From a virus (Duplodnaviria; Heunggongvirae; Uroviricota; Caudoviricetes), in the IMG/VR virus record IMGVR_UViG_2617270950_000003: DNA of 17,573 bases; one strand, written 5' to 3'. This document shows positions 9,854 through 14,348 of this stretch, piece by piece. Every line of letters starts with the position of its first letter. Position 1 is the stretch's first letter. Below the pieces are notes generated by a model that was not told the origin of the DNA, searched no databases, and saw only the letters and a program-made list of their open reading frames with translations. The position numbers and the translations under genes are program-made.

Positions 9854-10044
9854 GGACGCACCTCCGCCGTAGTTACGTATTTAACCGGGCTACCTTTCAT
9901 TGAGATGGTTTCACACATCTCTGCCGCTTTCAGTTCCGCTGTTTTTCTGGATTTATAGCGACGGTGCCAGACAGATACATCCGTGCGAACTGATACATCG
10001 TTTCTGTATTCCGTAGTGGAGATGATGATTTCGTAACTAATCAT
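9850..10044 (-). CDS. hypothetical small protein (64 aa)
   Basis: Overlap coupling on both sides (10041-10044 and 9850-9853). No family recognised. Confidence 0.4.
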   Translation of the reverse strand: MISYEIIISTTEYRNDVSVRTDVSVWHRRYKSRKTAELKAAEMCETISMKGSPVKYVTTAEVRP

Positions 10045-10892
10045 GGGCGAACCTCCTTGTCAGAACCATTCAGCCTGGAATCAACAAGTGCAGCGCCAAA
10101 AACAGCATCACCAACACGGTCGTACAGTTTGCTAGCCAGCGGAGATTCAACGGCCTTAAGCATTGGATAAAGCTGGCTTGTCCAGATTTGATGGATTTCA
10201 CGCAAATGCAGGTATACGCCTCTGGCGTTTCGTGCGACAGCTGACATATCAGACGTATCGGCACCTGATAAACTCTTCTCCATCAGGTTAAAGGCGTTGA
10301 TGTATGCCTCTTTGAACCGGGCAGCACGTTTACCAGTGAAGCCCATGGCAAGGAACGCGAAGCCATCGCGGGTGATTTGATAGCAAGGTAGTTTGCGGCC
10401 TGATGCGTCGGTGTATTCACTTAACACAAAATTGTGTTCAGTAAATTCAGCGGAACATTCGAGGTTTCTAATTCTATCTAAAACCCGCTCATGCCGTTTA
10501 GTAAAGTAATTAGCTACTGCAAGAGATGTGGTGACAACGCGACCATTGATAATCGTGATTTCAGGGTGAGATTGGGTTGGGAGAGTAGTCATGGTGACAG
10601 CCCCTATGTTGAATTCAATGAACTCACCACCAAGGCTTTCCACGACCATATAGGTGGTGAGACGTACAGGGGTGGAAATACCGGTCAACATAGAACCCGG
10701 CCCAACCGAAATTGGCCCTGCACGCCACACCATAATTTGGGCGTAACGATGCTCATGACACGAAAAAACCGCATGAGCGCGGTTGTGCTCTATATTGAAT
10801 TTCGGGTTTCCACGCCCGGCACCCGCTTTATAAGGTGCAGAGACAGTGTAACGTCCCGAAATTGCAGAATCAATATGCTGGTGGCGGATCAT
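10041..10892 (-). CDS. Rha-family phage regulatory protein (paralog A); Rha core from internal Met at 10592, preceded by a Gly/Pro/Ser-rich extension of about 100 aa
   Basis: Rha-domain blocks IINGRVVTTSLAVANYFTKRHERVLDRIRNL and YQITRDGFAFLAMGFTGKRAARFKEAYINAFN. Whether translation starts at 10892 or 10592 is unresolved. Confidence 0.7.
   Translation of the reverse strand: MIRHQHIDSAISGRYTVSAPYKAGAGRGNPKFNIEHNRAHAVFSCHEHRYAQIMVWRAGPISVGPGSMLTGISTPVRLTTYMVVESLGGEFIEFNIGAVTMTTLPTQSHPEITIINGRVVTTSLAVANYFTKRHERVLDRIRNLECSAEFTEHNFVLSEYTDASGRKLPCYQITRDGFAFLAMGFTGKRAARFKEAYINAFNLMEKSLSGADTSDMSAVARNARGVYLHLREIHQIWTSQLYPMLKAVESPLASKLYDRVGDAVFGAALVDSRLNGSDKEVRP
10815..10876. repeat. 62-bp block near-identical to 11471-11532 (copy 1)
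   Basis: cccggcacccgctttataaggtgcagagacagtgtaacgtcccgaaattgcagaatcaatat; 61 of 62 identities with copy 2 while flanking sequence is diverged. Confidence 0.85.
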
Positions 10893-11636: not shown

Positions 11637-11660
11637 GCCGGGTTACTCCCGGCTTTTTTT
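11637..11660 (+). terminator. plus-orientation intrinsic terminator overlapping the stop codon of the minus-strand Rha gene
   Basis: Hairpin gccggg-ttact-cccggc followed by T7. In the minus orientation the hairpin has no U-tract, so termination is plus-specific. Confidence 0.55.
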
Positions 11661-12373
11661 CATCGCTGCCAACCAATAACCTGAAATAACCCCATTTTCG
11701 GGTGATACCAGCGAGTCCCTCGCGGTTCTGCTTCCTCCATAACCCGATAAAAAGCAGCCATAAACGGTTCCACAGCAACAATTGCGCGACGTGACAACAA
11801 TCCGTCCGGCGTCATGAACTCATGTGTGTCTGTAGGAATTTGATAGGCGTTCACCAGATTGCGGCATTTATCATCTGACAAACCGGTTTTTGCTTTCAGT
11901 TGGCGATATCCGGCATAGCCCTCACGAATAGTGCCCTTTTTAATTTGCTCGACTGTTTCAGCAACGTGGCTGACTTTTTCTTCCACCTGAGTGATCCGTT
12001 TCTGTTGGCGAACGGCTTCAAGAGCCATCGCGGCAACCATTTCGATTTCGCTCATTGGCTTACGGATCTGTTCTTCCAGTTCGCGCCAGCGATCTACCAG
12101 GCGAGCTGTGAATTCAGGACAGAGCTGTGCGACGACAATGATGCTGTCGCGCTTACCTTGTTCGCCTTCGAAGATGTAAGCACCTACATTTCGTTTTAAT
12201 CCTAAGTTGTTGATTATTTCGAAATTCGCCATTGGCGCACTTCGAATAATCCCCTTATCCATGAGCCTTTCAATGCTGCGCTTAACATCTTTGTGTTGGC
12301 TGCCCACCAACTCTGCGATTTCAAGGCTGGTCATGGATGCTTTGCCGTTAAAAATTGCGGTGTTCACTGCCAT
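11660..12373 (-). CDS. Rha-family / antirepressor-like phage regulatory protein (paralog C, N-terminal Rha domain)
   Basis: 237 aa from ATG at 12373 with AAGGAG SD. N-terminus MAVNTAIFNGKASMTSLEIAELVGSQHKDVKRSIERL matches the Rha pattern. Confidence 0.7.
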   Translation of the reverse strand: MAVNTAIFNGKASMTSLEIAELVGSQHKDVKRSIERLMDKGIIRSAPMANFEIINNLGLKRNVGAYIFEGEQGKRDSIIVVAQLCPEFTARLVDRWRELEEQIRKPMSEIEMVAAMALEAVRQQKRITQVEEKVSHVAETVEQIKKGTIREGYAGYRQLKAKTGLSDDKCRNLVNAYQIPTDTHEFMTPDGLLSRRAIVAVEPFMAAFYRVMEEAEPRGTRWYHPKMGLFQVIGWQR

Positions 12374-12486
12374 CTCCTTACGGATAAATTCTTTTAAGAT
12401 TCCGCACATTCGTACTTATTGGTGCCGAACCTTCCTTCAGTTATCCTTTTGATCCCTATAAACAAAAGAACCAAAGGAGGTTCGAC

Positions 12487-12780
12487 ATGAAAGTTCAGGC
12501 CGTTGGTTTATTCTGGTTTCGCGATGCGATTCAGTATCATGAGCTCAAAAATATTTTTACTGATGCTGATGTGCTCTCCGACAGTTACACCGAGTGGAAA
12601 CACGACGCTGAAAAATTGATTAAGCGTGTCGAAAGAGGCGGGCAACGAGTTATTAAAGTTGAAGCGGATACAGCCGAGTTCATCGCTTGGTGTACAAGCG
12701 AAGGCATTGGAATCAATGCCGAAGGTAGAATGCAGTTCGCATCCTTTAAGGCTTACCAACAACTTCTCAGCGAACGCTAA
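12487..12780 (+). CDS. hypothetical protein (97 aa) encoded opposite to the early-right genes
   Basis: Consensus SD AAGGAGG 7 nt before ATG at 12487. Conflicts with a fully antisense minus-strand ORF (12508..12840, SD-like GGTGGTG); only one can be real. Confidence 0.4.
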   Translation: MKVQAVGLFWFRDAIQYHELKNIFTDADVLSDSYTEWKHDAEKLIKRVERGGQRVIKVEADTAEFIAWCTSEGIGINAEGRMQFASFKAYQQLLSER

Positions 12781-12850
12781 TGTGATCGGGGCAATCGAAA
12801 TGGTTGTCCCATCGTATTTAATAGTTATTTTTTCGCTCATATCACCACCA

Positions 12851-13060
12851 TCACTTCCCATCTTCCGTGTGCGCTAGGCTTGGGTGTGTATATGGAATGC
12901 TCGGATCCAAATGACAAAGAATGGCAACATCCTCCGGAACACCTCGCGTTTTCCACTTTCCAACACCTTGACTGCCACGAGGCCTTCCTTTCTTTGGGAA
13001 CCTGCGACCAATAGCGGCATTGGTTTTAAATTGAATTTTTAATATTTCATAAAGGGTCAT
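12851..13060 (-). CDS. possible Cro-position early regulator; small basic protein with an AT-hook-like KKGRPRGS segment
   Basis: Divergent from the CI-like gene across a 111-bp intergenic region, which is the cro position by synteny. No recognisable HTH and weak SD. Confidence 0.3.
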   Translation of the reverse strand: MTLYEILKIQFKTNAAIGRRFPKKGRPRGSQGVGKWKTRGVPEDVAILCHLDPSIPYTHPSLAHTEDGK

Positions 13061-13171
13061 TCTTTAGTCTCACACCAGATACTTTGTTATCCAACGATGT
13101 TAACCACAGGAATCCAAAGTATCAAGAAATTCTGTTACTTTAGTATCAACAGCCATGAGAGGAGAAGAAAA
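13061..13171. promoter_or_regulatory. divergent immunity-region control region (OR/PR/PRM-equivalent)
   Basis: Intergenic region between divergent regulator genes. Two direct AGTATCAA copies (13118-13125, 13142-13149). Strong SD GAGAGGAG before the CI-like ATG. Confidence 0.5.
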
Positions 13172-13828
13172 ATGAAGTCTTTAGGTGAACGTCTCATCAA
13201 CGCACGGCAAAAAGCTGGGTTAACACAAGATGCGTTGGCTAAAAAAGCTGGGATCACCAGAGTTGCAATCAGTAAAGCCGAGCAAGGCCTTACAAAAAGT
13301 TTCAACGGTGACACCCTTTTTAAAGTTGCAGCTGCACTGCGGTGTTCACCGCAGTGGATTCAGAACGGAGATGAAAAAGATAAGCATTGGGAAAATAATG
13401 TTAAGAGCTGCCCACAGAGAGACACAGCACACTCTTACCCTGTAATTAACTGGGTTCAGGCAGGATTATTCGCAACTTCTGGTGATGACTACAACATGTA
13501 TGATCAGGATAATTGGAGGCATTCTGTAAAATACGCTGGTGAGAGGGGGTTCTGGCTGGAAGTGCACGGAGACTCAATGACTTCGCCCGTAGGAATAACA
13601 TTTCCTGAAGGAATGTCGATCCTTGTCAACCCAGATAAAGAAGTTTTTTCAGGGTGTTACGTCATCGCCAGAAAAAAATCTACCAATGAAGCAACATTCA
13701 AAAAATATATTTCTGACATGGGAAAGGCGTTTCTAAAGCCCCTTAATCCACAATATCCAATCATAGAAATGGACAATGATTGCGAAATAGTAGGTGTTGT
13801 GGTTGATGCCAGGTGGGATATTTTCTGA
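13172..13828 (+). CDS. cI: CI-like prophage repressor (N-terminal HTH, C-terminal S24/LexA-type autopeptidase)
   Basis: 218 aa from ATG at 13172. HTH LTQDALAKKAGITRVAISKAEQG, candidate Ala-Gly cleavage site (VQAGLF), Ser nucleophile in GDSM, and downstream Lys residues. Confidence 0.85.
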   Translation: MKSLGERLINARQKAGLTQDALAKKAGITRVAISKAEQGLTKSFNGDTLFKVAAALRCSPQWIQNGDEKDKHWENNVKSCPQRDTAHSYPVINWVQAGLFATSGDDYNMYDQDNWRHSVKYAGERGFWLEVHGDSMTSPVGITFPEGMSILVNPDKEVFSGCYVIARKKSTNEATFKKYISDMGKAFLKPLNPQYPIIEMDNDCEIVGVVVDARWDIF

Positions 13829-13856
13829 CCAGACACAAAACACAAAAAGAAACCAA

Positions 13857-13927
13857 AGTATCAAAAATCACTTGCCACACCTTGATACCTTAGTTACCAT
13901 AAAACAAAGTTCGTAACTGAGGTATCA
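13857..13927. promoter_or_regulatory. operator-like GTATCA repeats between the CI-like gene and the downstream operon
   Basis: Inverted repeat AGTATCAA-N17-TTGATACC (13857-13889) plus GGTATCA at 13921-13927, immediately before ATG 13932. Same heptamer as in the cI upstream region. Confidence 0.45.
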
Positions 13928-13931
13928 TCTC

Positions 13932-14348
13932 ATGATCAATAAAGCTACAACTCTTGACTGTCTCGAAGAACTGAAAAACCTCGGCAGCCTCATTACACTA
14001 ATAGCAAAAGCAACACCTGATGCTACGCTCTCTAGCGATATAGAGTCATGCGCAGGACTGGCATGGGATATGACAAATAGCATATCCAGAAAGCTATCGT
14101 CAGCAATGCTTTTACAGAACAAAAATTCTGCAATCAACAACCGTCTTCGCACCCAACGCGAAGCCTGCGGCTTAACAACCGCCGAACTCGCCAGGCTGCT
14201 CGATCTCGATGAAGAAATTATCATCCAGTGGGAGAGCGGAGAGTGTGAACCAACTATCAGTATGCTTATCCCACTGGCAAATATTCTTGGCTGCGATCCG
14301 ATGTGGCTGTTAACTGGTAAACCAACAGGTGGGGATACTTGCGCATGA
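13932..14348 (+). CDS. hypothetical regulator (138 aa): unknown N-terminal domain plus C-terminal XRE-type HTH
   Basis: C-terminal LRTQREACGLTTAELARLLDLDEEIIIQWESGECEPTISMLIPLANILGCDPMWLLTG is HTH_XRE-like. Occupies the slot directly after cI. AT-rich codon usage. Confidence 0.6.
   Translation: MINKATTLDCLEELKNLGSLITLIAKATPDATLSSDIESCAGLAWDMTNSISRKLSSAMLLQNKNSAINNRLRTQREACGLTTAELARLLDLDEEIIIQWESGECEPTISMLIPLANILGCDPMWLLTGKPTGGDTCA

Follow-up and report, generated by a model that had tools for sequence, protein, structure and literature searches.

The window, by which we mean the whole 17,573-nucleotide (17.5-kb) stretch of DNA that was analysed, harbours a lambdoid immunity region, that of a phiP27-like prophage. 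A 2.9-kb segment around the repeats discussed below matches the Stx2e phage phiP27 at 94.9% identity and, at 99.4%, a prophage of E. coli O111:H21 strain 15A, which adjoins yecN/cmoA. One strand of the 15A prophage codes for a Q-type antiterminator, a DUF968 protein, a DnaB-type helicase, a helicase loader, an O-like HTH protein, two Rha proteins and the 69-aa protein; the opposite strand carries the LexA-family (cI) gene, the 138-aa HTH gene, small genes, ea22-like genes, xis and int. The gene order is the usual one for lambdoid phages and places positions 13061-13171 of the window where OR is expected and positions 13829-13931 where OL and PL are expected. Matches to the 2.9-kb region are found in 1047 of 5426 complete E. 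coli genomes (about a fifth), mostly partial or only 80-90% identical, and the phiP27-type sequence is present also in Stx1a-, Stx2a- and Stx2e-converting phages. Three genes of the window flank the two intergenic regions:

12851..13060, minus strand: cro-like gene, 69 aa, the first gene of the rightward (PR) early operon
13172..13828, plus strand: cI repressor gene, 218 aa, with an N-terminal HTH_3 and a C-terminal Peptidase_S24 domain
13932..14348, plus strand: first gene of the PL operon, 138 aa, with a C-terminal HTH_3 domain; a homologue of phiP27 L10 with Pfam and PHROG 4739 matches, annotated in relatives

The cI product combines an HTH_3 domain (Pfam, 2.7e-14) with a Peptidase_S24 domain (3.2e-22), the architecture of the LexA-like self-cleaving repressors of lambdoid switches, and is annotated as a LexA family protein in RefSeq. 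Among PDB entries it matches lambda CI over residues 12-215 (E 8.5e-34), and its N-terminal domain also matches P22 C2, 434 Cro and the 434 repressor. The S24 domain is intact, the VQAG cleavage motif, the GDSM serine and the FKK lysine all being visible in the translation. The 69-aa protein has no Pfam match and displays a Cro, or HTH-type, fold. Its homologues, which come from Photorhabdus, Salmonella, Providencia, Yersinia, Citrobacter, Kosakonia and one Logan read-assembly contig, are always encoded divergently from an adjoining cI-type gene about 105-115 bp away—the small Cro-type gene divergent from cI that belongs to a lambdoid switch.

A sequence-only reading of this DNA had drawn attention to five copies of a GTATCA "heptamer" around cI and had judged them unlikely to have arisen by chance. 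All five are indeed there: AGTATCAA lies at 13118-13125 and again at 13142-13149, a further AGTATCAA at 13857-13864 faces TTGATACC at 13882-13889 with 17 bp between them, and GGTATCA occupies 13921-13927, shortly 5' of ATG 13932. The motif is properly a hexamer or an octamer, and a sixth copy that had been passed over lies at 13078-13082, where the minus strand reads GTATC (GATAC on the plus strand). The judgment about chance is well founded, as the enrichment over a shuffled background far exceeds chance. GTATC/GATAC is the top strand-collapsed 5-mer of the two intergenic regions, in which GTATC is observed 6 times as against 0.28 +/- 0.52 in 5000 dinucleotide-preserving shuffles of those regions, none of which reached 6. 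The frequency of the motif elsewhere in the window, a check proposed by the same reading, points in the same direction: GTATCA occurs 13 times on both strands of the 17.5-kb window, and the two intergenic regions, 214 bp in total, account for 5 of these copies (binomial P about 3e-7). The pattern GWWAYNNNNGTATC has 5 matches in the window, with 0.19 expected. A looser rule, requiring GTATC and, in the other half, a match at three or more of the 5 positions, was discarded; it returned 11 matches (2.2 expected) and is too permissive because five of the 11 lie in coding DNA. A position weight matrix (PWM) derived from other genera, described below, discriminates better.

In their sequence context, the GTATCA motifs are very probably the high-affinity half-sites of six operators for the prophage CI repressor. 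The full set is one of six sites in a 3 + 3 arrangement, of which the five copies noted earlier were part:

13078..13091, no strand assigned: candidate operator site 1 (OR1-like), GATAC-TTTG-TTATC, read from the sequence and lying over the predicted PR start
13110..13123, plus strand: candidate operator site 2 (OR2-like), GAATC-CAAA-GTATC, the second-best PWM match in the window
13134..13147, plus strand: candidate operator site 3 (OR3-like), GTTAC-TTTA-GTATC, adjoining the cI ribosome-binding site
13849..13862, plus strand: candidate operator site 4 (OL3-like), GAAAC-CAAA-GTATC, upstream of the PL -35 and the best PWM match in the window
13884..13897, minus strand: candidate operator site 5 (OL1-like), GATAC-CTTA-GTTAC on the plus strand, in the PL spacer and overlapping the -10
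13913..13926, plus strand: candidate operator site 6, GTAAC-TGAG-GTATC, at about +6 to +20 from the predicted PL start

Set in register, sites 1-3 read GATAA-CAAA-GTATC, GAATC-CAAA-GTATC and GTTAC-TTTA-GTATC, and sites 4-6 read GAAAC-CAAA-GTATC, GTAAC-TAAG-GTATC and GTAAC-TGAG-GTATC. The unit is a 14-bp pseudo-palindrome, GATAC-N4-GTATC, which a T/A flank often extends to TGATAC-N4-GTATCA (14-16 bp); in each operator one half is near the consensus and the second half is degenerate (GWWAC). Perfect palindromes occur in relatives, namely GATACTTAAGTATC at site 1 in Stx2_12E129 and GATACTTTAGTATC at site 4 in L105. The site centres fall at 13084.5, 13116.5 and 13140.5 in OR, between cro and cI, and at 13855.5, 13890.5 and 13919.5 in OL, just downstream of cI, with centre-to-centre spacings of 32 and 24 bp in OR and of 35 and 29 bp in OL.

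This anatomy also bears on the 33-bp inverted element, AGTATCAA-N17-TTGATACC, that had been described downstream of cI. Its arms are where they were said to be, but we reject it as a single unit: each arm has its own second half within its own 14-bp pseudo-palindrome, so that the element amounts to sites 4 and 5 facing each other. The 17-bp gap between the arms contains the conserved -35 hexamer of the predicted PL promoter, and RNA folding favours the pairing of sites 5 and 6 over that of the two arms.

Consensus scans place an early promoter at each cluster:

13097..13125, minus strand: predicted PR promoter, -35 TTGATA (13125-13120), 17-nt spacer, -10 TAACAT (13102-13097)
13872..13900, plus strand: predicted PL promoter, -35 TTGCCA (13872-13877), 17-nt spacer, -10 TACCAT (13895-13900)

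PR, predicted to read leftward into cro and the replication genes, has a -35 made up of the strong half and AA flank of site 2 as they appear on the minus strand, and its -10 lies in the 18-bp gap between sites. Each of the five GTATC-type relatives from other genera also has a TAnnnT hexamer at this 17-nt distance from the site 2 TTGATA, as read by eye from the aligned sites. At PL, site 5 occupies the spacer, and the TAC of the -10 belongs to GTTAC, the weak half of this site; TTGnnn and TACnnT, 17 nt apart, recur at the same register in 5/5 GTATC-type relatives, and the hexamers are almost invariant across 28 E. coli-type variants. Hence the cI-cro intergenic region contains multiple partly palindromic operators overlapping the predicted PR, and a second operator cluster (13849-13926) sits at a promoter reading away from cI toward the recombination/integration arm, both as in lambdoid switches. 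We were unable to locate PRM, the maintenance promoter of cI; no conserved -10 was found in OR across the genera. One candidate -10, TAGTAT (13141-13146, inside site 3), was dropped, since Kosakonia and Citrobacter lack it and site 2 would cover the corresponding -35.

The conservation of the sites was assessed at two depths. Within the E. coli type, 70 loci with a CI at least 86% identical yielded 24 distinct OR and 28 distinct OL sequences, across which 28 of 30 columns are invariant in the strong halves, 20 of 30 in the weak halves and 14 of 24 in the central N4, with 38 of 130 outside the sites; the promoter hexamers, too, hardly vary. Immunity regions of Salmonella, Kosakonia, Citrobacter, Yersinia and Photorhabdus were reached through homologues of the Cro-fold protein. 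The CI proteins of these five genera are 63-74% identical to that of the window, their helix 3 (T/SRVAISKAEQ/LG) being identical or almost so, and the flanking DNA is unrelated to the window. All five keep the OR layout (site, 18 bp, site, 10 bp, site) and the OL layout (site, 8-9 bp, TTGnnn, 6 bp, site). In 7 relatives from other genera a site occupies the position of site 1; the core of site 2 is identical in Salmonella, Kosakonia, Citrobacter and Yersinia, with 2 differences in Photorhabdus; the half that is GTATC at site 3 is GTTTC in the other genera; and the strong GTATC half at the position of site 4 is kept in 5/5 GTATC-type relatives. Only the E. coli type and Photorhabdus have site 6; no such site can be recognised in Salmonella, Kosakonia or Yersinia, and Citrobacter has at this place a lone downstream GTATC that lacks a recognisable second half. 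A PWM made only from the five other-genus relatives was scored over about 35,000 positions of the 17.5-kb window, and its top six matches are the six sites. Three of the six outscore everything in 40 random sequences; the other three, taken alone, score no better than the best random match and draw their weight from position and conservation.

The half-site changes with the recognition helix of the repressor. In Providencia and in a metagenomic relative, a CI with helix 3 SRVTISKIELG accompanies GTTTC half-sites with the layout unchanged, and in a Serratia relative SRMAISKIEMG accompanies TAAAC-N4-GTTTA. A P22-C2-like control locus (L108) has ACTTAA/ATTTAA repeats at both the OR and the OL places, which we take to resemble the P22 operators. 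The heteroimmune phage PhiR49_2 has an unrelated cI, and no GTATC was found in its OR or OL. The operator sequence is immunity-specific in the manner of lambdoid switches: it tracks helix 3 of CI and is absent from the operator regions of the heteroimmune phage. These comparisons point to CI as the specificity determinant and the likely binder of the six sites. The 138-aa HTH protein, the homologue of phiP27 L10, might be thought to bind them instead, autoregulating its operon and acting on cI-cro, since it has a clear HTH_3 domain, site 6 overlaps the ribosome-binding site of its gene (GAGG, 13919-13922), and it has a partial match to PHROG 4836, labelled "CII-like regulator". Yet the HTH region of this protein is 79% identical over 81 residues, and nearly identical across the HTH itself, in PhiR49_2, whose operator regions contain no GTATC; conversely, Salmonella, Yersinia, Citrobacter and Photorhabdus share the operators, while these four relatives have no HTH gene after cI, only genes for proteins of 36-68 aa without a recorded Pfam domain. 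Because the half-site moreover co-varies with helix 3 of CI, the determinant of specificity appears to be CI and not the 138-aa protein, which is unlikely to be a binder of the sites; that it takes the place of CI in the way just outlined strikes us as extremely improbable.

The Cro-fold protein, for its part, probably also binds the six sites, as judged from the comparison with other switches. It is 63-80% identical in relatives where helix 3 of CI and the half-site differ; being so well conserved there, it must, if it binds, read the conserved AC-N4-GT core. The more radical reading, that the Cro-fold protein uses the sites and CI does not, could appeal to the constant adjacency of its gene to the sites and to its HTH-type fold, but the identity of the half-site follows helix 3 of CI over a range in which the Cro-fold protein retains this conservation, and to our knowledge CI and Cro share their operators in every characterised lambdoid switch (lambda, 434, P22), leaving this reading scarcely credible. 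That an AT-rich word recurs by chance in intergenic DNA that is itself AT-rich would be compatible with the modest excess of GTATCA across the whole window, where 13 copies stand against an expectation of 6.8 and a count of 13 is reached in 7 of 200 shuffles. This reading is refuted by the composition-matched shuffles of the two regions, by the retention of the sites at fixed spacing in six genera and by the PWM from other genera, and its probability is next to nil.

Sites 5 and 6 together form a 15-bp inverted repeat (13883-13897 / 13913-13927), which as RNA folds at -20 kcal/mol (z -5.2). Within the hairpin, the ribosome-binding site of the 138-aa gene is base-paired. The downstream copies might then act mainly as RNA, the hairpin masking this ribosome-binding site or attenuating read-through from cI. 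The stability of the fold and its retention in 28/28 E. coli-type variants agree with such a role, as does the lack of an intrinsic terminator after cI at 13829-13931 in the E. coli type, unlike the relatives in other genera, which have a strong terminator there. Against it, the three upstream copies and site 4 are left unexplained, and any two inverted operator copies form a hairpin automatically. No compensatory double substitutions were found among the 28 E. coli-type variants, the changes being wobble changes only, which are uninformative. Site 6 is unrecognisable in 4/5 GTATC-type relatives from other genera. The stem is AT-rich and is followed by UCUCAUG, unlike the GC-rich stem and U-tract of a terminator; with no U-tract after the stem, the hairpin is not a terminator. 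Finally, the predicted PL start lies inside the loop, so that PL transcripts would be without the 5' arm. A mainly RNA-level role is very unlikely on balance, and the hairpin may be a by-product of two inverted operators. A narrower proposal retains the operators and has sites 5 and 6 double, in the E. coli (phiP27-type) lineage, as an RNA switch that masks the ribosome-binding site of the first PL gene. As there is no terminator after cI in this type, lysogenic read-through transcripts from cI could contain the hairpin. We regard this double role as speculative and rather doubtful; if it were true, the hairpin of read-through transcripts would bury the ribosome-binding site, PL-started transcripts would leave it free, and one DNA element would repress the early-left operon twice, through operator occupancy and through translational masking of read-through.

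Under the reading we prefer, in which the six sites are CI operators, CI dimers bound there would keep both early promoters closed in the lysogen, and RecA-stimulated self-cleavage of CI would release both. We infer CI binding, promoter use, the transcription starts and any cooperativity or OR-OL looping from sequence comparison; the indirect hints at cooperativity and looping are the homology of the C-terminal domain to that of lambda CI and the 24-bp distance between sites 2 and 3. The sequence-only reading had suggested that the motifs are operator half-sites placing a downstream accessory operon under repressor control. The comparative evidence—pseudo-palindromes at predicted promoters, their presence in six genera and their co-variation with CI—supports both the half-sites and the repressor control, with the difference that the operon is the lambdoid early-left (PL) operon, reaching xis and int in near-identical prophages. 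In the literature searched, which excluded the original phiP27 genome paper, we found no earlier description of the phiP27-type operator sequence, and the literature searched likewise yielded no binding, footprint or transcript data for the phiP27-type repressor. The analysis furnishes an operator map for the phiP27-type immunity region, consisting of a consensus, six candidate sites and two predicted early promoters. Such a map lets immunity groups and superinfection exclusion be predicted among these prophages and enables the design of reporters and repressor mutants for studies of Stx-phage induction. In addition, the GTATC, GTTTC and GTTTA half-sites with their matching changes in helix 3 make up a small natural data set on shifts in HTH specificity.

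In every feature that sequence can address, the locus belongs with the CI/Cro switches of lambdoid phages. The mechanism is ordinary and adds nothing conceptually to the lambda paradigm; what appears not to have been mapped before is the operator sequence. With lambda it shares a CI with an HTH and an S24 autopeptidase domain and a divergent cro; three partly symmetric operators between cI and cro at back-to-back promoters (PRM not having been placed here); three more operators at the leftward early promoter downstream of cI; and sites with one consensus and one variable half. Adjacent lambda operators lie 24 bp apart, as do sites 2 and 3, whereas the other phiP27-type spacings, 29-35 bp, are not all those of lambda cooperative pairs. 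The operator itself differs, being (T)GATAC-N4-GTATC(A) of 14-16 bp in the phiP27 type and of a 17-bp TATCACCGC type in lambda. The phiP27 type further has no rex genes between cI and OL, so that OR and OL are only about 0.75 kb apart; one of its OL sites lies downstream of the predicted transcription start, over a ribosome-binding site; and no N homologue was recognised, the first PL gene coding for an HTH protein.

The closest characterised repressor is P22 C2, which is 43.6% identical over the full length, has a solved N-terminal domain and operates in the same layout. The two differ in the recognition helix, TRVAISKAEQG here and SNVAISQWERS in P22 C2 (as also in L108), and in the half-site, which is GTATCA here and of the ATTTAAG type in P22. 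The 434 system resembles the phiP27 type in its 14-bp operator with conserved outer bases and 4-6 central non-contacted bp, and its repressor is matched by the N-terminal domain of CI, but its operator is ACAA-N6-TTGT as opposed to GATAC-N4-GTATC. The all-alpha Cro proteins of N15, P22 and Xfaso-1 are only 10-15% identical to the 69-aa protein, which is distinguished by a basic insert, PKKGRPRGSQ, between helices 2 and 3. The Stx phage 933W likewise has an immunity region in which operators at OR and OL control the early promoters (PMC8065619, PMC5977221), the counterparts here being candidate operators. It has three OR sites and only two OL sites (PMC8065619), as against three at each of OR and OL in the phiP27 type, and the specificities of the repressors are unrelated. 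A "hair-trigger" design with a strong OR3 and low repressor has been reported for 933W and BAA2326 (PMC5977221). Site 3 of the phiP27 type recalls such a strong OR3, its full GTATC half being found only in the E. coli-type lineage, Stx phages included.

The immunity cassette is bounded by two mosaic joints, one at ~12859 and the other at ~14145. In many E. coli prophages the match to the window begins only at 12859, at the end of the cro-like gene, and continues onward from there, whereas in the heteroimmune phage PhiR49_2, which has an unrelated cI, it starts only at ~14145, inside the gene for the 138-aa protein. Given the position of this second joint, the N-terminal half of the protein travels with the immunity type and the C-terminal HTH is common to the types. 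The homolog in the relative Stx2_12E129 is a 215-aa protein with two HTH copies.

Predicted CI operators 5 and 6 together constitute a 15-bp inverted repeat (13883-13897/13913-13927). As RNA, this repeat has a computed folding energy of -20 kcal/mol (z -5.2), and in the predicted hairpin CCTT (13888-13891) pairs with GAGG (13919-13922), the ribosome-binding site of the 138-aa gene. Since the predicted start of PL, the early-left promoter, lies inside the hairpin loop, both arms are expected only in transcripts reading through from cI. All 28 E. coli-type variants retain the hairpin, and the only changes seen in it are to wobble pairs. No intrinsic terminator was found 3' of cI in the E. coli/phiP27 type (13829-13848); in the relatives from Salmonella, Kosakonia, Citrobacter, Yersinia, Photorhabdus and Providencia, a GC-rich stem with a T-run behind it comes directly after this gene, and in most of their immunity loci (L122, L124, L127-L129, L131) the stem is of the GCCGG..CCGGC type. 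Separately, a 7-bp unit, ACACAAA, sits in 13832-13846, between the cI stop codon and site 4. It is absent, single or duplicated among near-identical prophages, a variation that looks like replication slippage.

Besides the cro-like gene, the following lie within the stretch covered by the rightward early operon:

12487-12780, + strand, 97-aa ORF (PHROG 4753; annotated in RefSeq)
11660-12409, - strand, Rha-family regulator or antirepressor-like gene, early in the PR operon
10041-10892, - strand, Rha-family regulator or antirepressor-like gene, early in the PR operon

The 97-aa ORF overlaps 12508-12861 (-) and is antisense within the operon, flanked by the cro-like gene on one side and the Rha genes on the other. 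In phiP27 this position is occupied by a different gene, L13 (223 aa), likewise in antisense orientation, and the two Rha-family genes are annotated as "anti-repressor Ant".

The 69-aa Cro-fold protein (12851-13060, -) shows 63-80% identity across genera and contains an invariant stretch, GVGKW..GVP.DVAILCH. Relatives that differ in the CI recognition helix and in the operator half-site (GTATC versus GTTTC) are no exception; such constancy would be surprising if Cro and CI read identical outer bases. In the E. coli type, the OR3-like site 3 (13134-13147) has a full GTATC half; in five other genera, whose CI recognition helix is identical or nearly so, its equivalent is GTTTC. Judging from these half-sites, the predicted auto-repression site may be stronger in the E. 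coli-type lineage, which includes Stx phages; the strong-OR3 "hair-trigger" idea (PMC5977221) offers a comparison for this full-GTATC site.
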